In this document: positions 15,061-60,964 of the stretch, in pieces
Layout: each line of letters opens with the position of its first letter
How positions within the stretch are numbered: the first letter of the stretch is position 1
Source: Patescibacteria group bacterium
Lineage (GTDB): Bacteria; Patescibacteriota; Patescibacteriia; Magasanikbacterales; GWA2-37-8
Length of the DNA: 64,000 bases
Direction of reading: 5' to 3'
Assembly (NCBI GenBank): GCA_004321885.1
Contig: SCQK01000013.1
Location: 111,929-175,928, forward strand
Notes under the pieces: generated by a model
What the model saw: the letters and a program-made list of their open reading frames with translations, nothing else
Told to the model about the DNA's origin: nothing
The model's database searches: none
Made by a program: the position numbers and the translations under genes

Positions 15061-15069
15061 TGAACCTTG

Positions 15070-15363
15070 TGGGTGGAGTAGGATTCGAACCTACGAAGGC
15101 AGAGCCAGCAGATTTCATTTATCCAAAAGTTTCCTTCTAGCATGGACTATATCTTTATCCTATCCGCCAATCTGGCCGATAGGATACTCTGGTATCTAGT
15201 CTCTACGGCGCCCCCGACTTTGCCGGGGTTCCCACGGTATTAGCATGCCCGCCAGTTGGCGGATTTAGCTTTCACCGTTATCCCAGAGAGTTCATCCTAA
15301 AGTTACCTTTAGGAGCTGCGTTTCAACACAGTCTGCTCCAGTTGACCACTTTGGTATCCACCC
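15070..15363 (-). tRNA. tRNA-Tyr (anticodon GUA, class II) interrupted by a 212-nt group I intron
   Basis: Exon 1 at 15328-15363: GGGTGGA-TA-CCA-AAGTGGTCAAC-TGG-A-GCAGA-CTGT. Exon 2 at 15070-15115: AAA-TCTGC-TGGCTCTGCCTTC (long variable arm)-GTAGG-TTCGAAT-CCTAC-TCCACCC-A. Spliced loop CUGUAAA. Confidence 0.8.
15116..15327 (-). mobile_element. group I intron (ORF-less) in tRNA-Tyr
   Basis: Carries AAAGATATAGTCC (group I S element), GAGACTAGATACC (R/P7-like) and AAATCCGCCAACTGGCGGG (Q/P4-like). The 5' exon ends in U and the intron ends in G. Confidence 0.75.
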
Positions 15364-15382
15364 ATCTTCTTAAATTTTCTTG

Positions 15383-30704: not shown

Positions 30705-30785
30705 AAAAAAAACCCACCCCCTGCCACCACACCAAAATCTTTGGTGTGGTGGCCTGCCCCTCCCCTAATAGGGGAGGGTAGCTCG

Positions 30786-34674: not shown

Positions 34675-34942
34675 ACTATGAATATAATCTCATTCGCTCA
34701 GAACTGAATTAATAAATTAATTCAGTTCGCTCGCTCATTTCGATTATAAACAAAAAATCTGTGTTTCCACAGACTAATCCCGCCAAAGGCGGGCAAGAGC
34801 GCAAATCGACCTATACTGTCATTCCGGCTTCCGAGCCGGAATCCAGTTCTTTTTTGCACCTCGGCAGGTAATTAAGCCCTTTCGGACACCTGCTGTCTAT
34901 GGTGACAATAATATACAGGAAGCATAAAAAAATGTCAAGAAT

Positions 34943-47080: not shown

Positions 47081-49249
47081 CTATTTTTTCATCAATTTCT
47101 CAATCACCTCCACGTCATTATTTTTCGCGAACGCTCCGTAAATCGCTTTCAATTCCTTTTGATTAAACCCGTAACCCAATTCAAGCGCTTGCTTGGCCGA
47201 GCCGTACGCTTTATCCAAATCATTCTTGTTTAGATAAATCAACGCCAGCATCCAGTGCGATTCGGCAATGCCCGGCGCCAAGTCAATGGCTTCCTGCGCC
47301 AGCTTGATCGCCTCGTCATTCTTGCCTTGCAACATCTTGGCGCGCGCCAAACCCCAGATAATTGTTTGCCGGCGCGGACTGTAGGGCAGAATTTTTTTAT
47401 ACTGCTCCACGGCCGCTTCCAAGTAACCGGGGTTTAGCCAAAAATCATAACCGTCTTGATAGGCCCTGGCCAAAATCGCGCCGGCGCGCGCGTCGGCCGG
47501 ATATTTTTCCAAATAAAATTTCATGGCGCCCTCTCCCACCGAATACATATCCGCGGCCAATTTTCGGTAATCGGAAAAAGCAAAATCCGGGTGCTGGGCC
47601 AGCCATACCAAGAAAAATTGTCCGAATTCAAAAGAGATGTCGTAGGCGTACGGATTTGGTTTTATTTTTATCGCCTCTTTGTGCAGTTTGATGGCCGAGC
47701 CGAAGTCGGTCATCGCTTTTCTGATGGCCAGGGCCGAAATATGGTCGGCCTTGGCCGGAATAATGGAAAAGCGGTTGATGAGAATGAAGGCGGCGAAAAA
47801 AATAAGCAAGATGGCGAGGAGGCGTGTCATTGCGAGAAGCCCCGACGTAACGTCGGGGCGACGCGGCAATCTCTCATTTGCCTGGGATTGCTTCGGCCTT
47901 TCACGCCTCGCAATGACATCCACCCCGGCCAAAAGATAGAAAAAAAATAAATACGATGACTCGTTTTCAAAAACAAACAAATTTTGAACCAGGTGCGCGG
48001 TAAAAAAAGCGCCCAGGCCAATGGCTAAAATCCAATCACGATTATCTGGATTCCGAGCCCGAAGGGCTCCATTCCCACTTGCGCGGGAATGACATATTTT
48101 TTTGAAAAGGCAATAATAAACGCACGAATATATCGCGAGATAGGCAAGCAAACCCAGGATGCCTGTCGTGGCCAACGTGTTAAACAGAATATTATGCGCG
48201 TTGTCGGTCCACTCCTGGGCTTTGTCGTATTTCAAAAACTCGGGCTGATAATGCCTGTTGGCCAAATCGTAAAAATTTTCCCAGCCCCAGCCCAGCCACT
48301 TTTTTTCTTGCCAGCCGATGACCGCTGTTTTCCAAAACAACAAACGGGTGCCGCCGTTGGAAAATTCCAGCGGCTGGGCAAAACGCCCGAGCACGGGCCA
48401 GTTTTTCGCCCCTTCTATTTTTACCAAGGCCAGTAATATGAGCGGCGCCGAGAGCAAAATAATTAGTGAGGAAAGCCAAATTTTGCGCGTTTTCTGCCGG
48501 TAAATTTTGGAAATCGCGAGCGCGAACGCGATAAAAATCAGGCCGGCCCACAGGCCGATGATGTCGCCGCGGGTTTGGGTGGCAAAGAGAGCGATGAGGC
48601 TGGCGAGAGCCGAAAAGAGCCAGAACCACCACACCAAATTCTTTGGTGTGGTGGCATGCCCGCCATCATCCTGGCGCTCTTGACACGCAAAAATTAACGC
48701 CGAAAAAAATAAAAAAAGACAGAACCCGGCGACGTAAATGGGATTGCCGAGCGTGGCAGACATTCTCGCGGAGCCGATATTAAACAAAAACCGCGGGGAA
48801 AAAATTTGATAGACGGCTATCAACGCCACTGGCAAACCAAGAGCCGTGAAAATTTTCCACAGCTTGTACCACTCGTCTTTATTCAAAACCGAGCGCCACA
48901 CCAAAAAAAGCGCGCCATAATGCAACATGGTAAAAACGCCCTGCATGCGCTCGGCCCGGCTCCAAAAACTGCGCCAAAAATCCACGCCGGCCCAGGCCGA
49001 CGCGAGCATGGCCGCGTAAAAAAGGAAAACACTGAAAGACAGCCAGCTAAAACGCGGCCGGTTTTCTCTAAAATGAAACATCAGCAAAATCAAATACAAA
49101 GCGAGAATTACAGCCGCGCCGACTTGCACCCACATTGCTTTGCCAAACACAAAAGGAAAGGTGGAATTGGGAAAAACGACCAGAGGAACAAGAAATAAAA
49201 TCGCGGTGAAAAAAATTATCGCGTTTTTAAGGGAAAAATATTTAAGCAT
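47081..49249 (-). CDS. O-antigen-ligase (Wzy_C/RfaL)-domain membrane protein with C-terminal TPR repeats; three in-frame repeat-element insertions
   Basis: About 12 TM helices, the O-antigen-ligase loop motif (WENFYDLANRHY...AHNILFNTLATTG), and C-terminal TPRs. Palindromic elements at 47827-47920, 48040-48092 and 48627-48665 are read through in frame. Confidence 0.7.
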   Translation of the reverse strand: MLKYFSLKNAIIFFTAILFLVPLVVFPNSTFPFVFGKAMWVQVGAAVILALYLILLMFHFRENRPRFSWLSFSVFLFYAAMLASAWAGVDFWRSFWSRAERMQGVFTMLHYGALFLVWRSVLNKDEWYKLWKIFTALGLPVALIAVYQIFSPRFLFNIGSARMSATLGNPIYVAGFCLFLFFSALIFACQERQDDGGHATTPKNLVWWFWLFSALASLIALFATQTRGDIIGLWAGLIFIAFALAISKIYRQKTRKIWLSSLIILLSAPLILLALVKIEGAKNWPVLGRFAQPLEFSNGGTRLLFWKTAVIGWQEKKWLGWGWENFYDLANRHYQPEFLKYDKAQEWTDNAHNILFNTLATTGILGLLAYLAIYSCVYYCLFKKICHSRASGNGALRARNPDNRDWILAIGLGAFFTAHLVQNLFVFENESSYLFFFYLLAGVDVIARRERPKQSQANERLPRRPDVTSGLLAMTRLLAILLIFFAAFILINRFSIIPAKADHISALAIRKAMTDFGSAIKLHKEAIKIKPNPYAYDISFEFGQFFLVWLAQHPDFAFSDYRKLAADMYSVGEGAMKFYLEKYPADARAGAILARAYQDGYDFWLNPGYLEAAVEQYKKILPYSPRRQTIIWGLARAKMLQGKNDEAIKLAQEAIDLAPGIAESHWMLALIYLNKNDLDKAYGSAKQALELGYGFNQKELKAIYGAFAKNNDVEVIEKLMKK
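47827..47920. repeat. composite nested palindrome, paralogue of the 5925-6010 element, inside the ligase ORF
   Basis: cattgcgagaagccccgacgtaacgtcggggcgacgcggcaatctc...gggattgcttcggcc...cgcctcgcaatgacat. Confidence 0.8.
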
Positions 49250-49375
49250 GAAGACATTTTACAATAAAAAATCTATAAAAACAACCCCCCACCATAAGGG
49301 TGGGGGGTTAAGCCCCGCAGGGCTTCTATCAAACTAACTTCCTGGATTCCGGATCAAGTCCGGAATGACAAGTTA

Positions 49376-52300
49376 TTAGTATTGGTAGGTCTTGCCGTAT
49401 AACGGTACACCGGTCACAGGCGTGGCATTGCCAACTCCGTCATTCCACCTAAAGTTGACCAATTGGAAGGTCACTTTTTCGGTGTTGTTGGCGGAATCAG
49501 AGAAGTCGGTGTCGGTTGTATCAACAACCATGTACACCTGCTTCGTGCCGCTCCACTCATTTTGAGCGGTCAGGGAAACGCTGACAGCAGTGGTGGCCGC
49601 GGTGTCCACACCGGTAATTGTGGCTGTACCCATCAGGTGGGCCGCGTCAAAAGTGCTGCCATTGTACACGTTCAATGTGACAGAGTGGTCGCCGGCCGAG
49701 CTGGCGATGAGGTTGCCAGAGAGGCTCACGGTCAAGGAGTTCAGGGTGGAGTTCTGGGCAGAGCTCGGTTCAGCCGTAGAGGTGAACGTGAACACGCCAA
49801 TCGCATCCTGGGCCTTGGTGGTGTGAGTAACTCCGCCGGCATCGCTTTCAGCCGCGGTTACCTTGGTCTTTCTCACTGTCTGGGCCGTTACATTGGTGTT
49901 GTCCAACAGCACATCATCGGTGGCGCCGTATTTCTTGGCATTGGATGCCTCGCCGAGAACAATGAAGCCGTTGGTCAATTCCTTGTCAGCGACAGTGCCG
50001 CCGGTGGACCACTGCACGGTGGTGGAGGTTTTCTTCAAACCAATCTTCACCGCGTCGCCGGAAGTGGCGCCGTTGGCAACAGTGTTGATGTACGAACCAA
50101 CGGTCAGGAGCGCGCTTTTGTCTTTCTCAATATACATATCCAAAGCGCCGTCGCTGAAGGTCAGGTCGCCATCGCTGTTGAAGTAGCCTTCTTTGGTGAC
50201 GGTGGTGCCGGCCTTGTTCTTGTAGGTCAAGGTGACTTTATCCACGTCAGCCTTGTTGTTGGTGGTCAGGACCGCGCCAACCAAAGTAAAGGCCTCTTGA
50301 GAGCTGGTGAGCTTGTAGGTGGTGAAGCTAACCGGAGCCGAGGAGCCCGTCACAGAAATGTCTGCTAAGGGCGTGGTGCCATCCACAGCCACAGTAACGC
50401 TGCCGCCAGTGGTAACGGTGAGAGAAATAAGCGAGGAAGCGTTGATGTTGGAAGTGGTGTTCTCGGTTACCGCTCGGCCGTCGGCCTGGGTTTCCACGTC
50501 CATGTCATCGTCCGGGTCAATGCCCACGGCCACATAGCGGGTGGCAGTCATGCTGTCTTTCAGGCCAAGCACAGCCACCAATTTCTTGGAGTCGCCGGCC
50601 GCGACAGAATAATTGAGCGATGAGTACTGGACGTAGTAATAGCCGCCCGAACCAATGGTGCCCGACAAATCGGACAAATTCTTGGTGACGAGCGGGGTGC
50701 TGGCGCCGTCTTCATACAAGGCTACCGTGTTCACTGTGGTGTTGGCCGCTGTGTCGCCGGCTTCGGAAGCGCTAATGGAACCAAAAGCCGTGGTAGAGGC
50801 GTACACGCGCAGTTTCAAGCTGGTAATCTTGATGGCATCGGACGTGCCGGCCGTGATGAGCATACCCAAAGCGTTCTGGGTAGAGCCCTTTACAACCGTG
50901 GCCGAAGCCGGAGGAGTGGCGCGGGAAACCGTGATTTGCGCTCCGCTGATGGTCATCTGGTTGCCGGTCAGGGTGTTGGGCACGATGGCTGTCGCGGCAA
51001 CATACTGCGAGTTGTCATCGTACTTCACGGTGCTGGCCACGCTGTGGTCAACCTTGCTGTAAACCTTCATGCTGGTGGGAGCATTGGTATCAATGTCCAC
51101 GACCACGGCAAAATGCCTGGTCTTGCCAGCGGCGATGCTGTAGGCATCGGTGAAGGTCTTGAAATACGAATTGCCGTCAGCCGTACCATTGGTGCCGATA
51201 GCGGCTTCCGGACCGACCACGGTGGCATTGCTGTTGTCCAGGTCCACGATCTTCACGTTCTTTACATAGTTGTAAAGAGTGGCGGAAGAAGTGGCGTTGC
51301 CGGCCGCGTCAATCACGTAAATATACAGCTTGGTGCTCTTGATGGTAACGGCGTTGGTGGCGCTAAAGGAATACTTCTGGATGACAACATTGGTAACATT
51401 CTTGCCGATGTTTCCAGACGCCGGGCCGTTGTTGGCCAAGGTCAAGTCGCCGCCAGTAACAGTGTAAGTCTGGTCGCCCGAAGCCCAGTTGTCGGTAAGC
51501 GTGACGCCATAACCAAATTGAGCGTCAAGAATGCCCACATCGCTAAGCTCATCGGTGTAGAACTTTACAGTGTCATCCACGCGGCCGCCGGTGTTGTCGG
51601 CGTAAACCGTGAAGGTCTTGGTATCGCCCTTGGTAATGACAAGCGGGGTGGCCAAAGTGAACACTACCTTATCGTTAGTCATGGCCGCGACCGTAGCCAC
51701 GTCCGTGCTGCCGATGGTGAGCTTCAAGTTGGTCAGATAGGTGTTGGTCAAAGAGCCGGCGTTGGTAAGCGTCAGGCTCTTTACCTTTACATCATAAGTG
51801 GCAGAGCCGGCATTGATGGTGCCGCGTCCCACTTCAACACCCGTGGCGCCCAAGCGGAAGGTGCCGGATGAGCCGGAATTGTCAACGGTAACGGCTGAAA
51901 CAGCCGCGCCGCCCACGCCCATTGTGTTGCCGGCCACGCCTGTTACGGCGCCGCCATTAACCTCTACGACTTCCAGTCCGTCTTGGTTGCCCGCGCTCGG
52001 AGAGGCGGTTTCCATGTCAACCACGGCGCTTAGTGTCTTGCTTTCGCCCGCGGCCAAAGCTAACTTCAAATTGCTAAAGATTACCTTGTTGGTATCAGAA
52101 GCAATGGTCTTGCCGGTGGTCAAACGGGTGGCGCCGTCATACAAATAGACAGCGAGCAGGTCATCATACGCGCCCACGCCGAATCGCTTTAACACGACAT
52201 CGGTCACAGTGGCCGCGGCCGAACCGGCCTTAACGTTAAACTTCAGGAACGTAACGCCGGTGGCCTTTTGCGGAACAGTGGCCGCGGCCGGAGTGTCTGC

Positions 52301-53140
52301 CGCCAAAGTGACGGAGAGGGTGCCGGTCGTCGGAGCCGGAGTGGAAATGTCTCCATCCTGCGTGCGGTTGGTGATGGTGGAAACCAGGGCCGTAATTTGG
52401 TCGCCGGTGGTTAAGCCATCGGTGTACGCGGCCGGAACAGAATGCACGAAAGTGGTTTTGAACCGATTGGCAGTCATGCCAGCGGCCGTCACTTCGCGCA
52501 ACTTGTTGCCGTCAACATACCAAGTCTTGCTGTCTTTGGAGATGAGCATGCCATCGTGAACCTTGCCGGCGATATCAGCGCCGCGATTCACGTAGCTCGG
52601 CCAAGAAGCGTCACCGACAGTCATCACTTTATAGCTCGCGCCATAAAGGGCTTTGGCATCGGTATCCGAAATCTTGGACAAGGTGTTGCTGGGCAGAACA
52701 ACATACAACTGGTCCGAAGACGGTCTTTTTACAACATAAGAACCGGCTCGGAAATTCACACTCAATGGTGCGACGGTTGGTAATAACAATGAATCAAAAC
52801 ACGCCATGGTTACGGAAATATAACCACCATACGTGTTGTTCACGTTCCAACTCTTGAACTCATCGCCAGTCGGGAAATACATTACTTTCTGGTCTTTATT
52901 GACAGCATAAATGGCTGGCTTGCCAGTAACTTTAATCATGTCGCCGGCCGCGAATGTCTGGGAGCAGGCCGCCGCGTTCGCGACGTCCGGCACCAGGGCG
53001 GCTACGCCCAGTGACCAAAGAATGGTAGTGACCACTACGCCGACAGTAAAGATTTTCTTTCCTAATTTATATACGTCGGACATAAATTTATTAATGATTG
53101 ATATTGTCTCGCCCGTTTTCGAACTACGGACGAGATACAA
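49376..53140 (-). CDS. giant (about 1250-aa) low-complexity T/S/A/G/V-rich cell-surface protein (adhesin or S-layer-like)
   Basis: N-terminal signal/TM (IFTVGVVVTTILWSLGVAALV; the start may be 53083). Very long beta-rich low-complexity body. The C-terminal ~330 aa are paralogous to the 56189..57475 protein, with shared ending ...YGKTYQY. Confidence 0.7.
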   Translation of the reverse strand: MYLVRSSKTGETISIINKFMSDVYKLGKKIFTVGVVVTTILWSLGVAALVPDVANAAACSQTFAAGDMIKVTGKPAIYAVNKDQKVMYFPTGDEFKSWNVNNTYGGYISVTMACFDSLLLPTVAPLSVNFRAGSYVVKRPSSDQLYVVLPSNTLSKISDTDAKALYGASYKVMTVGDASWPSYVNRGADIAGKVHDGMLISKDSKTWYVDGNKLREVTAAGMTANRFKTTFVHSVPAAYTDGLTTGDQITALVSTITNRTQDGDISTPAPTTGTLSVTLAADTPAAATVPQKATGVTFLKFNVKAGSAAATVTDVVLKRFGVGAYDDLLAVYLYDGATRLTTGKTIASDTNKVIFSNLKLALAAGESKTLSAVVDMETASPSAGNQDGLEVVEVNGGAVTGVAGNTMGVGGAAVSAVTVDNSGSSGTFRLGATGVEVGRGTINAGSATYDVKVKSLTLTNAGSLTNTYLTNLKLTIGSTDVATVAAMTNDKVVFTLATPLVITKGDTKTFTVYADNTGGRVDDTVKFYTDELSDVGILDAQFGYGVTLTDNWASGDQTYTVTGGDLTLANNGPASGNIGKNVTNVVIQKYSFSATNAVTIKSTKLYIYVIDAAGNATSSATLYNYVKNVKIVDLDNSNATVVGPEAAIGTNGTADGNSYFKTFTDAYSIAAGKTRHFAVVVDIDTNAPTSMKVYSKVDHSVASTVKYDDNSQYVAATAIVPNTLTGNQMTISGAQITVSRATPPASATVVKGSTQNALGMLITAGTSDAIKITSLKLRVYASTTAFGSISASEAGDTAANTTVNTVALYEDGASTPLVTKNLSDLSGTIGSGGYYYVQYSSLNYSVAAGDSKKLVAVLGLKDSMTATRYVAVGIDPDDDMDVETQADGRAVTENTTSNINASSLISLTVTTGGSVTVAVDGTTPLADISVTGSSAPVSFTTYKLTSSQEAFTLVGAVLTTNNKADVDKVTLTYKNKAGTTVTKEGYFNSDGDLTFSDGALDMYIEKDKSALLTVGSYINTVANGATSGDAVKIGLKKTSTTVQWSTGGTVADKELTNGFIVLGEASNAKKYGATDDVLLDNTNVTAQTVRKTKVTAAESDAGGVTHTTKAQDAIGVFTFTSTAEPSSAQNSTLNSLTVSLSGNLIASSAGDHSVTLNVYNGSTFDAAHLMGTATITGVDTAATTAVSVSLTAQNEWSGTKQVYMVVDTTDTDFSDSANNTEKVTFQLVNFRWNDGVGNATPVTGVPLYGKTYQY

Positions 53141-53247
53141 TGGCTAAGGCGAGTCCCTATGGACCCTCGACCTTTGCTCTAGCCGTGATTAATACTTTCT
53201 CCCTCCTGCGCTGATTCCGACGCTCGGAAGCAACGCAGGGCGGAAAA

Positions 53248-54534
53248 TCACCTTGTCGCGCTGGTTACTATTAAAATGACCGCGGGAACAGTGGTGGCGG
53301 TAGCCGCAGTAGAGGTGGCGGTAATCATGATAGTGGAGGTGGGCAAAACGCCGGGCATGTCCTCTTTGACAACAACCATGGTGGGCAATACATTTTGCAC
53401 TGTCTTTAGGGTGTTGTCAAGCAACCGTTCCGCTTCCTTGTTCACGGTGCTCGCCTCTTTCATCAAGGTAATTGCTTGAGCCAGATTATCGTTGGAAAGC
53501 ATGACCACGGCTTTTGAGGCCGTGTCGCTGGCCGCGGTGGAAATCTGCCGGGTGATTTGAACGGCGCTTTCGGCTTGTTTCGCGACAACGTCAACCTGTT
53601 CGGACAAGGCCTGAGTGGATGTGCTTATCGGCGTAGCGGCGCTCATCTCTTTCACTTCGGTTTTTACCAAATCAACCGCTTTTTTCATCTCATCAACATT
53701 TTGCTTTGAAGCCGCGGCTTCACTCACGGTGGCTTGGAGCTGTTTGACAATAGTTTGCTTAACTTCGGCCGTTGACACGCTGTTATCGCCCTGCAAATGC
53801 TTTTCCACCATCACGGCCACGGCTTTCACGGCCGCGTCTTTAGTCAAGCTCTTGGCCTCGCTGACTTGCGCGGTAAGCTCGCCGCCGGCGGTGGTGCTGG
53901 GGGCAGAGAGCAGGTTGGCTTTTACCTCGGAAAGCACGCCCTTAATTTGCTCGGCATCTTGGGTGATGTTTTTGGCGGTTGAGGCGGCGCTGTCTGAACT
54001 TTTGATTTCTTCTAACTTGGCGCTCATTACGCTGATTTCATCTTTCAAATCGCTCACGGCTCCTTTGGCTTTTTCCATTTTTTGCGGGTCGCTGGTGGAA
54101 ACTAATTTTTTTGTTTCATTGGCGCGGCGCTTGGCAAATTCGGCGTGCAATTTGGTGGACGCGGTTTTTGTGCCCACGGCATCCACCACCGCGGCCCGGG
54201 TTTTTTCCGTGGCGCGCTTGGCCGAGTACAACAAATCGCCGGGCAGGGATTCATAAGACGCCTGCACGGTCGCTATCCAGCCGCCGGCCAACATGGCTAC
54301 AATCAAAATTAGCGCCGTGGCCGGCTTAAGCACGCTGTAAACAAAAGACTTGGGCAAAAATATGGAGAGGCCAAGCCAAAAATTTTCCAAAACAAATTTA
54401 TTTTTCTTGTCCGCGGAAACGGTATTTTTAATTTGAGAAAGCAGAAGCTCGCGATTGCTTTTGAGCCAATGTTGGCTGGGGTTCACATCGCCATGCCGCA
54501 AGGCTTTGAGTTGTGCGATGATTTCACGTCGCAT
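53248..54534 (-). CDS. anti-sigma-factor-like protein (cytoplasmic N-domain, one TM, long coiled-coil extracytoplasmic domain; DUF5667-like)
   Basis: Immediately downstream of the ECF sigma gene with 2-nt spacing. TM at about residue 90 (ATALILIVAMLAGGWIATV), followed by a long A/S/T/K/E-rich coiled region. Confidence 0.6.
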   Translation of the reverse strand: MRREIIAQLKALRHGDVNPSQHWLKSNRELLLSQIKNTVSADKKNKFVLENFWLGLSIFLPKSFVYSVLKPATALILIVAMLAGGWIATVQASYESLPGDLLYSAKRATEKTRAAVVDAVGTKTASTKLHAEFAKRRANETKKLVSTSDPQKMEKAKGAVSDLKDEISVMSAKLEEIKSSDSAASTAKNITQDAEQIKGVLSEVKANLLSAPSTTAGGELTAQVSEAKSLTKDAAVKAVAVMVEKHLQGDNSVSTAEVKQTIVKQLQATVSEAAASKQNVDEMKKAVDLVKTEVKEMSAATPISTSTQALSEQVDVVAKQAESAVQITRQISTAASDTASKAVVMLSNDNLAQAITLMKEASTVNKEAERLLDNTLKTVQNVLPTMVVVKEDMPGVLPTSTIMITATSTAATATTVPAVILIVTSATR

Positions 54535-54536
54535 AA

Positions 54537-55076
54537 TTATTCTTCTAAAAGCTCTTTTAATTTTTTTATGCCCCTATGCAGAGTAACGCGCACCGCTATC
54601 TTGCCCTTGCCCAAGATTTCGGCGATTTCGGCGATTTCCAATCCATCCACATAGCGCAGGGTGACGGCCTCGCGGTATTCTTGTTTTAATTGTTTCAGCC
54701 CCCCCACTATTCTTTCGGCTTCCATTTTTACGCCCAGCTGTTTTGTCCACGCGCCCTGGTCGCCCAATTCCATCTCGCCGATGGCTATGGCCCCGACCTG
54801 GCGATTTTTGGCGCGATACAAATCAATAATCGCGTTTCTGGCCAGTTTGTAGAGCAAGCCGCTGAAACTCTCTATTTTTTTTTGCTCTTTGGTATAATGC
54901 CAGGCTTTGAGAAAAACCTCGGAAGTGATGTCTTCGGCTTCTTCGTGGCCCGCTACTTTAAAAAATATAAACCGATAGATTCTTTTGGCGTACAAATCAT
55001 AAAGCCTGGCGAAAGCTTCCGGGTCGCGCTTGGTTTGCAGTTTGTAGAGCAGTACCTTTTCGTTTAGCTTTGGCAT
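54537..55076 (-). CDS. ECF-subfamily RNA polymerase sigma-70 factor
   Basis: Region 2 (FARLYDLYAKRIYRFIFFKV...AEDITSEVFLKAW) and region 4 HTH (VTLRYVDGLEIAEIAEILGKGKIAVRVTLHRGIKKLK). Confidence 0.85.
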   Translation of the reverse strand: MPKLNEKVLLYKLQTKRDPEAFARLYDLYAKRIYRFIFFKVAGHEEAEDITSEVFLKAWHYTKEQKKIESFSGLLYKLARNAIIDLYRAKNRQVGAIAIGEMELGDQGAWTKQLGVKMEAERIVGGLKQLKQEYREAVTLRYVDGLEIAEIAEILGKGKIAVRVTLHRGIKKLKELLEE

Positions 55077-55517
55077 TATAGTAGACGTTAAAAAGTGGAA
55101 GTTGTTACACTATTGTCATTCCGGTGTCATTCCTGGCTTGACCAGGAATCCACGGTAAAAACAGCGTGAATAAAAATTTACACCCAAAAAACAGGGCTAA
55201 ACCACTACACCTAAAAATTAGGTGCGGTGGTAAACCATACTGGGGTATAGTATAGCAGAAATATTAAAGATGGACAAGATAACTGCATAATGGGTCTGTC
55301 GCCGAATACCATTTCTACTGCAATTTCAGAATTATGGCCAAAATCGCCTCAAAATTTCAAGGGCTGAGACAAGTCAAAATTTATTTTGACTTGCGAAGCT
55401 CGCAGAAATTTGTAAGCTCGCTTCAAATTTTTGGCTCTTGCTGGCTCCATAGCGCTGCGCAGGCGGCTATTGCCGCCGCGCGGCCTGCGGAGCCAACTTT
55501 GTTAATTTTTCCAAAAA

Positions 55518-55624
55518 TTTGTATATACTACTCTATACAAATCGTCAAAATGGCTTCTTTTAACTAACATTAGCATAGAAATGGCACTTTTACGAAAAAA
55601 TTTGTATATACTACTCTATACAAA
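55518..55624. promoter_or_regulatory. two identical 24-bp palindromic boxes (TTTGTATATACTACTCTATACAAA) spaced 83 bp apart, upstream of the HTH gene
   Basis: Copies at 55518-55541 and 55601-55624, each preceded by an A5 tract and each an inverted repeat TTTGTATA-N8-TATACAAA. They sit in a 600-bp AT-rich intergenic region between divergent genes. Confidence 0.55.
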
Positions 55625-55646
55625 CGGTAGGTACGCAAAAAAAGTA

Positions 55647-55675
55647 TTGACTTTTCCGCCTAACTGTGGTATAAT
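55647..55675 (+). promoter_or_regulatory. sigma70-type promoter with an extended -10 (TTGACT-N17-TGgTATAAT); produces an essentially leaderless mRNA
   Basis: TTGACT at 55647-55652 and TATAAT at 55670-55675. The ATG at 55684 leaves no room for a Shine-Dalgarno sequence. Confidence 0.5.
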
Positions 55676-55683
55676 ACTTAATT

Positions 55684-56022
55684 ATGCTGACAGTCGCCAA
55701 ACAACCCAAAGAAATAATCCGTGTCTCGGTTTCCGAAGCAGCCAAGCTGTTTGGCGTGAACGCACAAACCATCAGGCGCGCCATTGCCAGACAGGAAGTT
55801 ACCTATGCCATAGTCGGCGGCCGATACAAAATCAATTTTGAAAGCCTGATAAGATGGTCGCAAACGCGCACCACCACCCGCAATAAATTAGCCAACAGCG
55901 GCATAGGCCAATACGTGGAAAAATGGAAAATCAAAAATCCCCTCTTCTCCCCCAATCCAAAACTCGTGGAATATAAACCAAAGGAAAATCCCAAACGTTC
56001 AGTGGATTCCCCTCCCCTTTAG
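55684..56022 (+). CDS. excisionase/MerR-family HTH DNA-binding protein
   Basis: VSEAAKLFGVNAQTIRRAIARQEVTYAIVGGRYKI is a helix-turn-helix. The C-terminus ends inside a CCCTCCCC..GGGGAGGG hairpin element. Confidence 0.6.
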   Translation: MLTVAKQPKEIIRVSVSEAAKLFGVNAQTIRRAIARQEVTYAIVGGRYKINFESLIRWSQTRTTTRNKLANSGIGQYVEKWKIKNPLFSPNPKLVEYKPKENPKRSVDSPPL

Positions 56023-56188
56023 AAGGGGAGGGCGAGGGAGGGGTATAAACAAAAAACGCCAGCGATAACTGGTGTTTTTTGTATATGACCCGAAGGAGCG
56101 AATGCTCAACCTCGGGTCTGCGGCTGGCCATGGCCGCGCTGTCCGCGCGTCCGAGAACTCGGGAGGCGGAACTTGATTGGATGGCCGG

Positions 56189-57475
56189 CTAGTACAAGTA
56201 CGTCTTTCCGTACATGGCTGATACGCCGATGACTGGGAAAAGCTCGGCATCGGCGACGCCATCAAACCACTTGTATTTTATCAAGTGGAGGGTCAGTTTC
56301 TCTATGGAGTTGGCGCTGTCCACGAAATCCGAATCCGTGGAGTTGACCACAAAATAAACCTGCTTGTCACCGCTCCAGTAGTTCATCGCGTTGATTGGAA
56401 TCTCCGCGATGCTGCTGCCGTGGGTGTCAAGGCCAGTGACCACTCCGAACCCCATCAGAGTCGCGGCGTTGAAAGCGCTGCCACTATAGACAGAGAGTGC
56501 TGTCTGGTTGTCTCCCTGTCCGATGGCGATCAAGCTACCGGAAAGCTTCACGGTAACTGATTTGAGAGTGGAATTCTGGCCGGAATTCGGTTCAGCGGTT
56601 GACTTGAACGTGAACACGCCGACCGCATCCTGCGATTTCGTGGTGTGCGCGATACTCCCGAAGTCGCTCTCGGTCGGTAAGACTTTCGTCTTCCTCACTA
56701 CCTGAAAAGCGAGCTTGGTGTTGTCCACGCTGATGTTGTCCGCGGCTCCGTACAACTTCACGTTGGAGCTCTCGCCCAGCGCGACAAACCCGTTGGTGAG
56801 AGTACTACCCGCGGCCCACTGCGAGGCGACCTTCTTCAGGCCGAGCTTCACACCATCACCGGACACGGCGCCATTCGCGATGGTGTTGAGGTAGGCGTTG
56901 ACAGTCAGGAGCTCGCTTTTCCCTTTGCCGATGTACATATCCAGCGCGCCGTCGGGAAAAATGAAGTCGCCGTTGCTGTCAGGGTAGCCCTCGCGCCACA
57001 CCGTCGTGCTCGCCTTGTTCTTGTAAACAAGAGCCACCTTCGCGACATCATGTTTGTGGGTCGTATGAACCACCGCGCCCACCAGGGTGATTGCCTCGTT
57101 CCTGGCGGTAATGCGATAAGTGGCAAACCCTACTGGCCAGGTTCCACTCACGGCGACGTCGGCGAGCGGCGTGACGTTGTCAACCCCCACGCTGATCGGG
57201 CCGGGCGAAACTCCCTTGTCCGGCTCTGCTATGTGCCGTTCGTCGCGAGGAACAGCATCCGCCGTTGGCAAATCCGTTCTCAACGCGTCGGCCGATAGCA
57301 TATCCGACCGCGCTGGCCCGAGGTCGGGCGCGGGCATGGCGTCGGCGGTAGTGGTTACCGAACGGTGGTCGCAGGCGGAGACGAACAAGCAGAACATCGC
57401 AAACATGATGGCGCTACGCATTATCGTGTCCTTTCGTGAAAAGAGCATCGTTGTTTGGGGAAAATCCCCCTCCAA
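56189..57475 (-). CDS. surface lipoprotein paralogous to the C-terminal third of the giant 49376..53140 protein
   Basis: Likely start at MRSAIMFAMFCLFVSAC (lipobox-like VSAC, about 57421). About 50% identity to the giant protein over ~330 aa. Shared C-terminal motif YGKTYLY. Relatively GC-rich. Confidence 0.65.
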   Translation of the reverse strand: MEGDFPQTTMLFSRKDTIMRSAIMFAMFCLFVSACDHRSVTTTADAMPAPDLGPARSDMLSADALRTDLPTADAVPRDERHIAEPDKGVSPGPISVGVDNVTPLADVAVSGTWPVGFATYRITARNEAITLVGAVVHTTHKHDVAKVALVYKNKASTTVWREGYPDSNGDFIFPDGALDMYIGKGKSELLTVNAYLNTIANGAVSGDGVKLGLKKVASQWAAGSTLTNGFVALGESSNVKLYGAADNISVDNTKLAFQVVRKTKVLPTESDFGSIAHTTKSQDAVGVFTFKSTAEPNSGQNSTLKSVTVKLSGSLIAIGQGDNQTALSVYSGSAFNAATLMGFGVVTGLDTHGSSIAEIPINAMNYWSGDKQVYFVVNSTDSDFVDSANSIEKLTLHLIKYKWFDGVADAELFPVIGVSAMYGKTYLY

Positions 57476-57614
57476 ATCCCCTCTTTGATTCTAACCCAAA
57501 ACGTCTTTATGTAACACAAAAAAACCCTCTTGTCAAGGGTCTTTTCGCTAATTTTCGCTTACATTGTACTAAACCCCTCCCTTTATCCCTCCCCTTATAG
57601 GGGAGGGCTTTTCC

Positions 57615-59666
57615 TTACCTCACCATCACTCCGGTCGCGTCGCCTTCCATCATCGGCATGGGATAATATATCGGGTCGCGGGTGCCGTAGATTACTTCCG
57701 AGAGCTGGCTCAAATCTGACAATTTATGCGCGGTCATTTCATAGTCGGAGAGCGCGTACAAATTATCGCCGATGTAAAGCGAGCGCTTGATGGCCGCCGA
57801 GCCGTAATAATTCACGTATTCTTTTTGCGGCGCTGGCGCGATATGGGTAACCGGGCCCTTAAACTGGAAACCGTTTTCCAAATCCACCTTGTACACGAAC
57901 AGCCCCTGAAAATTCACCGTGCCATAGGCCCACGGGTTGTTCGCCATATCGGCCTTTTGCTCGGGCGAAAGCTGGGCCAGGGTCACAGGAAAGGCGAGCA
58001 AATTTTTGTCTTTTGAAAACAGAAACGCGTGATGGTCTGTCAGCGCGGCCGAATCCGTGCCCCTGTCCCCTATCTCGGTCTTAAACATTTCTTTCGGGTT
58101 ATTAGGATCAGTCACGTCAAACAATCCCAGCTTCAGGCCTTGATACCAAGCAAATCCAGGCGAGTCGGTGTTGGAAACCGCGTTTTTGCCAATGCCGATG
58201 AGATGCGTGTCATCATACGGATGCAGATAAGTGGAATAGCCCGGAATTTTCAGCTCGCCCAATAATTTCGGATTGCGCGCGTCGGCCAGGTCAAACACAA
58301 ACAGCGGGTCGGTTTCCTGAAAAGTCACCACATAAGCGCGCTTGCCCATAAACCGCGCCGAGTAAATTTTTTCGCCCTCACCAAAACTGGCGTACGAGCC
58401 GACGCGGTTCAAATCCTTGTCCAGCACATACAGGCTGTTTTTCTTGCCATACACGCCCTCTTCGCCCCAGTACCCGTTTAGAGTGGTAACCAAACGCAAA
58501 TTGCCCTCAAACTCATCCATGGAAAATTGATTGAGAATCGTGCCGGGCACGTTTTGCGAAGCCGCCAGCTCCACGGATTTTTTATCCAGTTTAAATTTCT
58601 GTATTTCGGTCTGCTCTTTTTTTGGGGCAAACCAGTTGTAGTCAGAATTCACGCCGGCCACGTATAAATTTTGCGCGCTGGCGTAAACCTTGTCCCCGGC
58701 TCCCAAAATAATTTTCTCGCCCGGGTCGGACATCGGGCGCTTCATATCCAAAGACACGATTTGCAAATAGTCGGCGCGGCGGATGGGATAAATATACTCC
58801 ACGCTGGCGCAAGACGCCATTTGCTTAAAAGCAACCGCGCTCGGCTCGTCGGCTTTGGCGCCGCGCCTGTCGCGTTCAACCGGCATCAAATCCACGGCGC
58901 GCCGGCTGATGGCCGCTGACAAGCCCGCTTTAACTCCTGACGCGGCCGCGTCCGAGGCGGCCATCGGCAAAATGTGATACTGCGGCTGGCTGTTGATTAC
59001 CAAATACGCGTAGCCGTTTGTCATTCGCGAAGTGAGCAAATTTCCGCTGTACTCCAAATTGCGCTTGAGCGCCGGTTTTTCCTTGTTGGAAATATCCCAA
59101 ATTTGCGCTGACACGTAATTGTTGTAATAAGGATAGGGATAAATCTGGGGCCTGGCCATCATTTTAGCCGCGTCTTTCATTATGGAATAACCATGGGCGC
59201 TACCCAAGACCAGCAGATAATCGCCTTCAATGTAAATTTCCGCGGCGCTGTTTAGGCCCTCCAATTTGGTTTTGGAAAGGAGCTTGGCGGAATCCGCGGG
59301 CACAGCCGAAGAAATAATCAGATTGCCCTGGGACAAATTGTAAATATATTTGCCGTCGGTTTTCACGATGTCGCCCTCGTCCACGCCCTCCACTTGCACG
59401 TTTGTTTTAGAAAAATTAGAGTCCGAGGCCGGAGCAGATGCCATCGGCGCCATTTCCATGCCCAAAGCGCGCATGCCGATGCCATAGCCCATATTGCCCA
59501 ATGGCAGTTTGGAAATCTTCGCGCGCAAATCAGCGCAGGAAACAAACCGACGCACGGCGCGGGCGCGCAGTTTAGCGGATTTTTTCGGCGCGGCCAAAGC
59601 CGGCGCTATTACCAGCGCTATGGCGAAAACCGCGAAAAGCGCCCCGTATAAAATTTTCTTGGTCAT
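57615..59666 (-). CDS. secreted beta-propeller-domain protein (Beta_propel/PF09826-like)
   Basis: Signal peptide plus a 680-aa body with repeated blade-like segments, and a YQGLKLGLFDVTDPNNPK motif typical of this family. Confidence 0.5.
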   Translation of the reverse strand: MTKKILYGALFAVFAIALVIAPALAAPKKSAKLRARAVRRFVSCADLRAKISKLPLGNMGYGIGMRALGMEMAPMASAPASDSNFSKTNVQVEGVDEGDIVKTDGKYIYNLSQGNLIISSAVPADSAKLLSKTKLEGLNSAAEIYIEGDYLLVLGSAHGYSIMKDAAKMMARPQIYPYPYYNNYVSAQIWDISNKEKPALKRNLEYSGNLLTSRMTNGYAYLVINSQPQYHILPMAASDAAASGVKAGLSAAISRRAVDLMPVERDRRGAKADEPSAVAFKQMASCASVEYIYPIRRADYLQIVSLDMKRPMSDPGEKIILGAGDKVYASAQNLYVAGVNSDYNWFAPKKEQTEIQKFKLDKKSVELAASQNVPGTILNQFSMDEFEGNLRLVTTLNGYWGEEGVYGKKNSLYVLDKDLNRVGSYASFGEGEKIYSARFMGKRAYVVTFQETDPLFVFDLADARNPKLLGELKIPGYSTYLHPYDDTHLIGIGKNAVSNTDSPGFAWYQGLKLGLFDVTDPNNPKEMFKTEIGDRGTDSAALTDHHAFLFSKDKNLLAFPVTLAQLSPEQKADMANNPWAYGTVNFQGLFVYKVDLENGFQFKGPVTHIAPAPQKEYVNYYGSAAIKRSLYIGDNLYALSDYEMTAHKLSDLSQLSEVIYGTRDPIYYPMPMMEGDATGVMVR

Positions 59667-59782: not shown

Positions 59783-60964
59783 CTAATTCGCCAGTTTCAT
59801 GATGCTCAAAATGGCGGCCAGGGCAAAGGCCGCGAAAACAGGCACTGCCAGAAGCCAAAAATGATGAAGATTATAGCGGCTGGCCGGCAAATCGCCCGCG
59901 GAACGCGCGCGCCAGCACACCAGCACGGTAAGCATGGCGGTAATGCCGATAAAAACCCCGCCCACCACGTCCAGCACCGCCACAAAACTGCGCAGGCCCA
60001 GCATAAACAAAAACAGCGGGAAAAATATCACGAGCAGTTCGGACAAGTGCCGGTTCAATTTGAAATCCCAAATAAACAGTTGTTTCAAGGCCACGCCCTG
60101 GCCGAAAAAAGCCGTGCCCATGGCCAAAATCGCGAACAGGTTGCCGACAAACAGCGCCCCGCGCCCCATTTGCCCCAGCCCCACTGTGGCCACCTCGGTC
60201 GCGCCGGCGCCCATGACCCCAGCCACTGCCAAAGCAAACAACGCGTAAACAGCCACCGGTATCAGGCTGCCGATGACGATGGCCTTTCTAAAATGACGCT
60301 CACTGCCCGGCAAAAGCGCGTGCGCCTCCACCACGGCCGGCCCGGCGTGCAAAGCAAATAAAATCACGCCATAAGGCAAAAACAAATTCGCGATATTGAT
60401 ATACTGCCAATTGGCTACCTGAAATTTTGGCAAAAGAAAAAAAGACAAGCCGGCAATCAGACAAATGACAATGAAACTCAAAACTTTTTCCGCTTTTTTG
60501 GCGGCGCGTAAACCGCGCCAGACAATATAACTGCCGATGCCCCAAAACAGCACGCCCCACCAGACCGGATTGCCGCCGAAAAGAGCCGAGAGCGCCTCGC
60601 CTTCGCCGATAATATAGGCGAGTAAAACCCCGAACGCGGAAAAAATCATCATAAACGAGGTGAGCAGTTTGGCGCCCGGACCCAGATATTTGCCGGCAAA
60701 CCCGGGCAGGTGCATGGGCTCGCGCGTGCGCACCGCGATTTCGCCGAGCATCAAATTCAAGCACATCATCACCGCGCCCAAAATTAAAATATACGCCAGC
60801 CCGATTTTTAATCCGACTTGCGCCACGACATACGGAATGCCCAAAATGCCGGCGCCGATAGTCATGCCGGTGAGCATAAACACGGCCTCGGACACGGAAG
60901 CGACGGGCTTGTAAACGCCCTGATGCAGGATAACTGCCCTGTTATTTTTTAAACCTAAAATCAT
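59783..60964 (-). CDS. amino-acid permease (HAAAP/Trp-Tyr permease-like family)
   Basis: 11 TM helices. N-terminal GMTIGAGILGIPYV is a signature of aromatic amino-acid/HAAAP permeases. Confidence 0.6.
   Translation of the reverse strand: MILGLKNNRAVILHQGVYKPVASVSEAVFMLTGMTIGAGILGIPYVVAQVGLKIGLAYILILGAVMMCLNLMLGEIAVRTREPMHLPGFAGKYLGPGAKLLTSFMMIFSAFGVLLAYIIGEGEALSALFGGNPVWWGVLFWGIGSYIVWRGLRAAKKAEKVLSFIVICLIAGLSFFLLPKFQVANWQYINIANLFLPYGVILFALHAGPAVVEAHALLPGSERHFRKAIVIGSLIPVAVYALFALAVAGVMGAGATEVATVGLGQMGRGALFVGNLFAILAMGTAFFGQGVALKQLFIWDFKLNRHLSELLVIFFPLFLFMLGLRSFVAVLDVVGGVFIGITAMLTVLVCWRARSAGDLPASRYNLHHFWLLAVPVFAAFALAAILSIMKLAN

Follow-up and report, generated by a model that had tools for sequence, protein, structure and literature searches.

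We analyzed a 64-kb window of DNA (the whole stretch under study, from contig SCQK01000013.1 of a Patescibacteria group bacterium; positions are counted from its first letter) that carries, on one strand, the genes of an extracytoplasmic function (ECF) σ factor, a DUF5667 membrane protein and a very large secreted protein and, diverging from them, the gene of a small HTH_17 protein. This locus is probably a surface-protein cassette of S-layer type belonging to the Patescibacteria, or Candidate Phyla Radiation (CPR), and the large protein is called a putative S-layer protein (SLP) below. Open reading frames (ORFs) of the window were listed, and the predicted proteins were scanned against Pfam and NCBIfam. 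All five genes named in a preliminary description of this DNA lay where it had placed them, and the region is composed as follows.

47081-49249, minus strand: membrane protein with Wzy_C and TPR domains (ORF listing, Pfam), directly downstream of the SLP gene; by its domains and adjacency a candidate S-layer glycosylation/attachment enzyme
49376-53140, minus strand: large surface protein ORF of 1254 codons (ORF listing)
49376-53083, minus strand: putative SLP gene, 1235 amino acids (aa), exact database product P0118 (NCBI hypothetical EPN28_03760)
53248-54534, minus strand: DUF5667 membrane protein, 428 aa (ORF listing, Pfam)
54537-55076, minus strand: ECF σ factor, 179 aa (ORF listing, Pfam, NCBIfam)
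55684-56022, plus strand: HTH_17 protein, 112 aa (ORF listing, Pfam, NCBIfam)
56189-57475, minus strand: lipoprotein ORF of 428 codons (ORF listing)
57615-59666, minus strand: Beta_propel protein (ORF listing)

A metagenome scan anchored on HTH_17 returned at least 470 relatives, and 80 loci were analyzed for synteny, each gene being counted only in loci with a flank long enough to hold it. The order p580 ← HTH_17 / ECF σ → DUF5667 → SLP, in which p580 is a ~580-aa protein with an N-terminal transmembrane (TM) anchor and DUF11 and Arrestin_C-like β-sandwich domains encoded after HTH_17, was nearly invariant in the metagenomic loci.

σ gene, divergent from HTH_17: 47/47 loci
DUF5667 gene: 34/34 loci
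SLP gene: 31/31 loci
p580 gene after HTH_17: 46/50 loci

On the long contigs L002, L008, L009 and L010, p580 and HTH_17 occupied one strand and the σ, DUF5667 and SLP genes diverged on the other. Identity to the window proteins in the related loci, measured by tblastn, was 57-65% for σ, 42-50% for DUF5667 and 56-78% for HTH_17, the best-conserved protein of the cassette. The preliminary description had proposed an envelope regulon switching between two surface proteins; the counts above support its tie between the σ/DUF5667 pair and the big protein and place the HTH gene with its operator boxes inside the conserved unit.

The start codon of the SLP gene is most likely the ATG at 53083, as in the 1235-aa database product; the ~1250 aa given earlier thus fit the ORF, and the likely product is shorter. 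By reading of the sequence, the N-terminus holds a signal peptide, MSDVYKLGKKIFTVGVVVTTILWSLGVAALVPDVANA/AA (...VANA/AA), which is kept in homologs, and the protein carries the secretion signal expected of S-layer proteins. An AlphaFold2 model based on a 48-sequence alignment was confident, all-β and multidomain (mean pLDDT 87.8), so the label "low-complexity" did not survive. The model begins with a ~200-residue domain of three β-β-β-α repeats and a disordered linker, followed by about 8-9 immunoglobulin (Ig)-like β-sandwich units. Self-BLAST detected no internal sequence repeats, the domains being repetitive in structure only. Pfam gave no match to the N-terminal repeat domain and no family match to the SLP family or the lipoprotein, and NCBIfam was likewise without a match for both surface proteins of the window.

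A profile of the C-terminal region that the SLP shares with the lipoprotein, run against 1.8 billion representative proteins, found 117 relatives, and a word-based search with the mature SLP found more than 214 clusters. Nearly all relatives were 1150-1280 aa long, collinear from signal peptide to C-terminus and 27-60% identical to the window SLP; family length is uniform across Patescibacteria at ~1200-1270 aa. They came from metagenome-assembled genomes of Magasanikbacteria, Uhrbacteria, Parcubacteria, Gribaldobacteria and Microgenomates and were always annotated as hypothetical. Three of them bore known N-terminal wall-binding modules, SLH in P0213 and P0220 and PG_binding_1 in P0023. A preprint (10.1101/2024.05.28.596244) describes a putative SLP family for the Patescibacteria, whose members are 1131-1274 aa long and built with Ig-like assembly domains. 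It calls the family strikingly like the Haloferax volcanii SLP, finds many homologs in the phylum, reports confident predictions of hexagonal lattices and places members among the top-expressed secreted proteins of the Kuroda et al. metatranscriptomes. The window SLP probably belongs to this family, the agreement being one of size, phylum and architecture.

L001, L002 and L008 also have a Wzy_C gene after the SLP gene, and a Wzy_C/TPR gene was found there in 15 of 25 metagenomic loci. Since the Wzy_C domain marks the O-oligosaccharyltransferases of S-layer glycosylation clusters, this neighborhood is suggestive, and only suggestive, of SLP glycosylation by the adjacent gene. As a separate observation at the 5′ end of an SLP gene, L002 holds a 96-aa ORF (9512-9802, plus strand of that contig) between DUF5667 and the leader and SLP gene, which duplicates the SLP signal peptide (74% identity over 38 aa to that of the window SLP), a trace of rearrangement.

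The σ protein contains the Pfam domains Sigma70_r2, r4_2 and Sigma70_ECF within its 179 aa, that is, only regions 2 and 4 as in ECF (group 4) factors, and scored 76.3 bits against a cut-off of 42.9 with the NCBIfam family TIGR02937 (sigma70-ECF), which confirms its earlier assignment. Its scores were far under the cut-offs of the NCBIfam equivalogs BldN, SigW, SigX, SigM and others (116 vs 206 for the BldN family, 71 vs 243 for SigW), and its closest solved full-length relative was Bacillus subtilis SigW (E 2e-15). Two promoter-like elements precede the gene.

55084-55109, minus strand: ECF-type promoter TGTAAC-N16-CGTC with the −10 element 7 nt from the σ ATG (motif search)
55249-55277, minus strand: σ70-type promoter-like site TTGTCC-17-TATACT, TG-extended, candidate basal promoter of the σ operon (promoter scan)

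GTAAC-N15-17-CGT occurs a single time in the window, at 55085-55108 on the minus strand, abutting the σ start. The ECF promoter was found at the σ start in 5/5 loci of a first comparison and in 57 of 60 metagenomic loci, where its consensus reads GTGTAACA-N15-CGTCT(A/T)CTATAATG with the ATG lying within it (short form, GTGTAACA-N15-CGTCTnCTATAATG). Cis-element scans of the metagenomic loci covered 716 kb of flanks (±10 kb per genome), in which GTAAC-N16-CGT[CT] occurred 64 times, 61 of them at σ starts. This candidate promoter, recognized by its motif, probably autoregulates the σ gene, and mRNA initiated from it should be leaderless because only 7 nt separate the −10 element from the ATG. Farther upstream, TTGACC-N17-TGnTAnnAT was present in at least 27 of 57 loci, mostly 35-55 nt before the ECF promoter (range 28-228). 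The preliminary description had looked to ECF-type promoters upstream of 53140 and 57475 and had named their absence as one of two results that would speak against it. None was found: from strict to loose stringency, the window and L001-L003 and L005-L010 held no ECF motif before the SLP, p580 or lipoprotein genes, and the search for GTAAC-N16-CGT[CT] in the 80 metagenomic loci gave none before surface genes.

The ~140 nt separating the σ70-type and ECF promoters of the window (55109-55248, minus strand) contain several hairpins, such as CCACCGCACCTAATTTTTAGGTGTAGTGG followed by a T-rich run, and GGATTCCTGGTCAAGCCAGGAATG, which could be an attenuator or a small RNA.

The DUF5667 gene starts 2 nt after the σ stop codon, and its product, earlier called DUF5667-like, is a true Pfam DUF5667 match (30.3 bits, cut-off 27). 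In its AlphaFold2 model (pLDDT 75.8), ~60 cytoplasmic residues with two short N-terminal helices of low confidence lead into one TM helix (~62-83), a confident all-α ectodomain (100-385, ~290 aa) and a disordered Thr/Ser-rich tail; homologs were uniformly 440-450 aa long. The protein therefore combines two features of anti-σ factors, a gene coupled to that of the σ factor and a single-pass topology with a cytoplasmic N-terminus. Such position, coupling, topology and co-occurrence are typical of ECF partners. Its position, the 2-nt coupling, its topology and its invariant co-occurrence make the protein a candidate, still unproven, for an anti-σ factor or sensor.

Between the DUF5667 and SLP genes lies a conserved structured RNA, and a hairpin of terminator type follows the SLP gene.

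53084-53247, minus strand: structured intercistronic/leader RNA in the DUF5667-SLP spacer (folding, cross-locus conservation)
53135-53193, minus strand: leader core consisting of P1 (8 bp), the conserved 5′ bulge AAGGUCGA, P2 (6 bp) with its loop, and then CAUUGUA (covariance model, 59.1 bits, E 1e-11)
49282-49310, minus strand: strong intrinsic-terminator-like hairpin with a 12-bp stem and T-run, after the SLP stop (terminator scan)

The leader RNA runs from a long pyrimidine/purine hairpin after the DUF5667 stop through the core, CAUUGUA and variable hairpins to an AT-rich start that lacks a Shine-Dalgarno (SD) sequence; in the window, where the core is followed by a third hairpin, the whole spacer folds at −66.6 kcal/mol (z −5.68). 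A covariance model (R1) built from 34 sequences was searched in 795 kb and gave 41 matches, one per locus and always in the same spacer and on the same strand. Compensatory changes were seen in 12 of the 14 pairs, 87.9% of cells were paired, and the covariation score of 0.493 compared with 0.238 for shuffles (0/500 reached it) and at most 0.207 for slid controls. The leader is kept across proteins only ~30-60% identical, with a spacer of ~160-260 nt. No Rfam 15 family matched the leader of the window, whether at the gathering threshold or at E≤1, and four further loci likewise gave no match. On the coding strand of the window, no terminator-like site was found between the DUF5667 and SLP genes, and the hairpin at 49282-49310 is the likely end of the transcription unit.

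In many loci the leader has a second conserved domain between the core hairpin and the ATG, made of an outer stem, (T/C)TGAC(C), a hairpin and GCGC(G)CAA. It was seen in L013, L018, L020, L022, L029, L057, L043, L075 and others and is missing from 53084-53134 of the window and from L040 and L081; base pairing of its UUGACC with the invariant bulge GGUCGA might form a pseudoknot.

The spacer on the other side of the σ gene, shared with HTH_17, holds a promoter and two palindromes.

55647-55675, plus strand: near-consensus σ70 promoter of HTH_17, TTGACT-17-TGgTATAAT, 11/12, ending 8 nt before the ATG (promoter scan)
55519-55540, unstranded: operator-like 22-bp imperfect palindrome TTGTATATACTACTCTATACAA, copy 1 (repeat search)
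55602-55623, unstranded: operator-like palindrome TTGTATATACTACTCTATACAA, copy 2, its end ~24 nt ahead of the HTH promoter −35 element (repeat search)

The distance of 8 nt is consistent with a leaderless or near-leaderless HTH_17 mRNA, as had been proposed, and the duplicated operator-like boxes noted before are the two identical palindromes. In the 716 kb of flanks, all 201 of 201 copies of the palindrome TTGTATACACTAGTGTATACAA (≤4 mismatches) lay in the HTH_17-σ spacer. There are typically three per locus; the window has two and lacks the proximal copy, and in other loci a copy spans the start site of HTH transcription. The HTH_17 sequence had no match among solved structures (best E 0.38). 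The domain is of excisionase type, and a role as an excisionase was rejected, given that the gene is a conserved member of the cassette with no integrase nearby. No p580 homolog was found in the window by tblastn. The idea that p580 is a distant paralog of the SLP or the lipoprotein was likewise dropped: BLASTP gave nothing (E>0.8), and its domains are DUF11 and Arrestin_C-like.

We propose that the σ, DUF5667 and SLP genes would form one operon with basal transcription from the σ70 promoter. DUF5667 would act as a membrane anti-σ factor or sensor that holds σ at the membrane, its long helical ectodomain reaching into the space of the wall or S-layer. A cue from the envelope or S-layer would make it release σ, and the ECF promoter would then amplify all three genes, which would couple SLP supply to the state of the envelope. 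The spacer RNA may set the ratio of SLP to its regulators by processing, by stabilization of a 5′ end or by translational control of the SD-less start. HTH_17 would bind the palindromes to regulate the transcript that it normally shares with p580; the divergent σ promoters may be under its control as well. The SLP would be anchored by its N-terminal repeat domain, replaced by SLH or PG_binding_1 in some relatives, and may be glycosylated by the adjacent Wzy_C/TPR protein. In its widest form, the proposal is of a phylum-wide S-layer homeostasis circuit of undescribed kind. There, the DUF5667 ectodomain and Thr/Ser-rich tail would sense the S-layer state or unassembled SLP and gate a dedicated ECF σ for a single leaderless σ-DUF5667-SLP operon. 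The spacer RNA with its invariant AAGGUCGA bulge would be a new cis-regulatory RNA (a protein or ligand site, or a processing site) that sets SLP per transcript, and HTH_17 with its palindromes would form a second, divergent arm for p580, whose position, and perhaps role, a lipid-tethered SLP copy would have taken here. This full version is speculative, and we would be surprised if all of it held.

Several observations weigh against the reading as a regulated S-layer cassette. The loci were gathered by HTH_17 similarity, and the synteny counts describe HTH_17-containing lineages, not all SLP homologs. The DUF5667 protein has no recognizable anti-σ domain: Pfam found DUF5667 only, NCBIfam nothing, and the class I anti-σ domain, zf-HC2 and RskA patterns were all absent; residues 1-60 contain no HxxxCxxC and no Cys/His motif, and Foldseek found no match to the model at E≤1e-3. 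Co-transcription of σ, DUF5667 and SLP is deduced only from strand, spacing, the lack of a canonical terminator and the conservation of the spacer RNA, and the leader motif was not found in the distant homologs on the short contigs L006 and L007. A −10-like TTAAT/TAAAAT stands just 5′ of P1 in many loci, and the SLP mRNA could begin at the core hairpin, from a promoter that escaped recognition. On the protein side, the S-layer identity draws on the predictions of the preprint and on architecture, lattice formation and the status of a major envelope protein are putative and come from literature on putative relatives only, and the fold matches of the SLP are generic Ig/cohesin-like ones that would fit an adhesin equally well.

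The AT-rich −10-like box would be explained if σ and DUF5667 were a general envelope-stress module merely syntenic with the SLP gene, which would then have its own constitutive promoter in the spacer, the RNA being a stabilizing 5′ untranslated region (UTR) and the regulon lying elsewhere. The absence of the ECF motif before the SLP gene in any locus agrees with this, termination without a U-tract could occur at the long hairpin behind the DUF5667 stop, and a 5′-terminal hairpin is a classic mRNA stabilizer of abundant transcripts. A merely syntenic module is hard to square with linkage in 31/31 loci at fixed order, strand and ~160-260-nt spacing across proteins 30-60% identical. No conserved −35/−10 pair was found in the spacer, nor a canonical terminator there in the window, and the ~716 kb of flanks, which cover only ±10 kb per genome, held essentially no other targets of the ECF motif. 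We regard such a module as a real but lesser possibility.

The generic folds bear on another alternative, in which the big protein is a host-attachment adhesin or fiber of an episymbiont and not a lattice-forming SLP, and the cassette regulates adhesin display. Kuroda et al. (2024, PMC10936435) described the highly expressed secreted proteins as peptidoglycan-binding/Ig-like and favored adhesion. Adhesin repeats vary in length, unlike the SLP family with its near-constant length, collinearity and apparently one copy per locus. The SLH or PG-binding N-termini of some relatives, the hexagonal lattice predictions and H. volcanii SLP likeness given in the preprint, and the presence of 7ptp_A among the best fold matches also argue for an S-layer protein, and an adhesin is unlikely in our judgment.

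The putative S-layer cassette of the window is bordered by the lipoprotein, which resembles the end of the SLP.

56189-57421, minus strand: lipoprotein gene, 410 aa, with the shared part at 56192-57202 (database product P0001)
49379-50404, minus strand: SLP C-terminal region duplicated in the lipoprotein (ORF residues 913-1254, the last ~3 β-sandwich units; BLASTP, alignment, secondary structure)
57488-57541, minus strand: σ70-like promoter candidates of the lipoprotein gene (TTGACA-17-TACATA by eye, GTTACA-16-TAGAAT by scan)

When the large ORF (residues 913-1254) was aligned with the lipoprotein ORF (92-428) by BLASTP, 198/345 positions were identical (57%, E 3e-126). This confirms the shared C-terminal region, given before as ~330 residues, at an identity higher than the ~50% stated there. 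With its start at 57421 the lipoprotein has 410 aa, not 428. P0001 shows by inspection the lipobox MRSAIMFAMFCLFVSA/C (FVSA/C), which fits the pattern [LVI][ASTVI][GAS]C of bacterial lipoproteins, followed by a ~70-aa Pro/Asp/Ala-rich tether and the copy of the last ~3 β-sandwich units of the SLP. It has neither the N-terminal anchor domain nor the first ~6 domains of the SLP and therefore cannot replace it.

The common YGKTY(Q/L)Y end was present in the alignment, as ...LYGKTYQY* in the SLP and ...MYGKTYLY* in the lipoprotein, and a six-frame scan of the 64-kb window found the YGKTYxY tail on no other reading frame. In the AlphaFold2 model YGKTYQY is the last β-strand (E1192-1197) of the final Ig-like domain, and ends within the SLP family vary (YGDTYSY, YSDTYSY, QYKTFTY, GTLSYTL, NGGALLF, TTLTMSK and others). 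The C-termini of both proteins carry no hydrophobic helix and no basic tail of the LPXTG, PEP-CTERM, GlyGly-CTERM or PGF-CTERM pattern. The tail had been offered as a sorting or anchoring signal; as it varies across the family, has no hydrophobic or basic segment and is modeled as a terminal strand, we rejected that role and regard it as a clade-specific terminal β-strand. Its superficial GxxYxY resemblance to an outer-membrane β-signal (xGxx-aromatic-x-aromatic) is coincidental, since the SLP fold is a chain of β-sandwiches and not a barrel; the tail is also not conserved.

The closest relative of the lipoprotein domains is the window's own SLP, at 57% vs at most 49% for orthologs from other genomes, and on this ground a foreign origin was rejected. 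The shared DNA is 62-66% identical, with identical codons at 96 of the 198 identical residues; because of this identity and the saturation of synonymous sites, a recent duplication and gene conversion were rejected too. By these sequence comparisons, the lipoprotein is an old duplicate made within this lineage. Apart from itself, it had one database match, a partial SLP ortholog. It occupies, in opposite orientation, the slot that normally holds p580, and an SLP-like paralog on the HTH side was found in 0/80 related loci; bracketing by two paralogous surface proteins is thus true of the window and peculiar to this genome.

Two paralogous genes flanking the regulators, with 57% identity over their last 345 residues including the tail, agree with the earlier model of an ECF system that switches between the big protein and the lipoprotein, both with a common C-terminal sorting or anchoring tail. 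The lipoprotein gene has its own σ70-like promoter candidates, an SD-like sequence also precedes it, and its upstream region is free of the ECF motif, the palindrome and the leader motif. As it carries none of the cis elements of the cassette, there is no indication of a switch between surface proteins; its absence from all 80 related loci, the lack of the N-terminal anchor and first ~6 domains, and the nature of the tail as a clade-specific strand make the model very improbable. Most likely, the lipoprotein is tethered to the membrane and associates with the S-layer through the same domain contacts, and is not an alternative S-layer under σ control. Possibly it also substitutes for p580 as a membrane-side partner, which is the weakest of our suggestions.

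A hairpin CCTCCCCT-N3-5-AGGGGAGG occurs in three copies (30759-30777, 56011-56031 and 57588-57606; 0 expected by chance), two of which lie on either side of the lipoprotein gene, one of these across the stop codon of HTH_17. The idea of a mobile insertion bounded by the hairpins at 56011 and 57588 is weakened by the third copy at 30759: it lies in an unrelated spacer and marks the hairpins as generic, and no integrase was found. The hairpin is probably a genome-wide terminator or an element like the repetitive extragenic palindromes (REP).

Next to the cassette, the Beta_propel protein at 57615-59666 (minus strand) is secreted (PF09826, E 1.6e-156); a tblastn match to it on the p580 side was found in 2 of 80 loci, L045 (53%, in the orientation of the window) and L012 (25%, on the opposite strand). 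An aromatic amino-acid permease gene follows nearby (59783-60964, minus strand) and is a frequent neighbor on the p580 side in related loci. Farther away, a tRNA-Tyr(GUA)-like gene at 15064-15365 (minus strand), 47 nt after tRNA-Thr(UGU), seems to have a group I intron (Rfam RF00028, 61.7 bits, 15123-15335) inserted in its anticodon loop; ARAGORN made no call, and the exons were read by eye as GGGTGGATACCAAAGTGGTCAACTGGAGCAGACTGT... and ...AAATCTGCTGGCTCTGCCTTCGTAGGTTCGAATCCTACTCCACCCAC. At 34743-34920 (minus strand), in the ribosomal-protein region, stands an ordinary ribosomal protein L10 leader (Rfam, 53.6 bits).

Patescibacteria account for a large part of bacterial diversity; hardly any have been cultured, their regulators are very few, and the envelope is central to their episymbiotic way of life. 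If our reading is true, the σ-DUF5667-leader-SLP unit with HTH_17 would serve as a genomic marker for an S-layer gene in any CPR genome and would give a first candidate function to DUF5667 and to a widespread HTH_17 protein. It would also define DNA targets (GTAAC-N16-CGTC and the 22-bp palindrome), add a new structured RNA motif with strong covariation, and provide a case in which an S-layer gene is tied to an ECF σ/anti-σ pair. The relevance lies in CPR biology, ECF signaling and RNA-motif discovery, the lipoprotein paralog, the tail and the bracketing being a minor, lineage-specific side issue. Our literature searches found no description of the fixed cassette combination across a phylum, of a leaderless ECF promoter consensus, a private palindrome array or a covarying leader motif, or of a DUF5667 association with an S-layer gene or an S-layer gene wired to an ECF σ/anti-σ pair, and no paper mentioning DUF5667. 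ECF σ/anti-σ operons, S-layer leaders and HTH_17 regulators are already known kinds of element, and the SLP family has probably been proposed before.

That proposal, the preprint family (10.1101/2024.05.28.596244; A0A1G2EN61, A0A1F5NRV7, A0A0G1WWP5, A0A1F4NSF7 and GMX59286.1), agrees with the window SLP in phylum, size (1131-1274 vs 1235 aa), signal peptide and series of Ig-like domains, and also in the likeness to H. volcanii SLP, the abundance of homologs across Patescibacterial classes and the presence of relatives with N-terminal PG-binding domains. In the passages of the preprint that were read we found no mention of the σ/DUF5667/HTH_17/p580 cassette, its promoters, operator array and leader RNA or the lipoprotein paralog, the words "sigma" and "operon" not having been specifically searched for. 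H. volcanii csg (PDB 7ptp) shares the Ig-like chain (Foldseek E 1.2e-13), its 14% sequence identity being the highest within the top-ten Foldseek matches, with the same or higher values at ranks 45-50. Compared here by fold, csg is archaeal and has a C-terminal PGF-CTERM lipid anchor, whereas the window SLP likely has an N-terminal anchor and ends in a plain strand.

In S-layer O-glycosylation clusters, the oligosaccharyltransferases WsaB/WsfB and PglL carry the Wzy_C domain; the cassette resembles these clusters in the Wzy_C (+ TPR) gene directly downstream of the SLP gene, with sugar-nucleotide genes following in relatives, and differs in that the adjacency holds in 15/25 loci only. Lactobacillus slpA and E. 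coli ompA have long structured 5′ UTRs, that is, stable hairpin-rich leaders before an abundant surface protein gene. The leader described here, unlike these, has a core conserved in sequence and covariation, lies between cistrons and is without an Rfam 15 match. Streptomyces BldC is a small HTH_17 (excisionase/MerR-like) regulator acting on multiple repeated promoter sites, as the cassette protein would; the sites of the cassette, in contrast, are 22-24-bp palindromes, perfect or nearly so, which come in arrays of 2-4 and are confined to the HTH_17-σ spacer. The SigW-RsiW, SigX and SigM operons of Bacillus have in common with the cassette a two-domain σ factor, a TGTAAC-N16-CGTC-type promoter before its own gene and a single-pass membrane partner encoded directly downstream. 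An additional σ70 promoter, as in the σ operon of the window, is known for sigM and sigX. The window differs from these operons in a partner lacking a recognizable anti-σ domain or zinc motif, with the uncharacterized DUF5667 helical ectodomain in its place, in a σ mRNA that appears leaderless, and in an operon that seems to run on through a structured RNA spacer into one very large structural gene.

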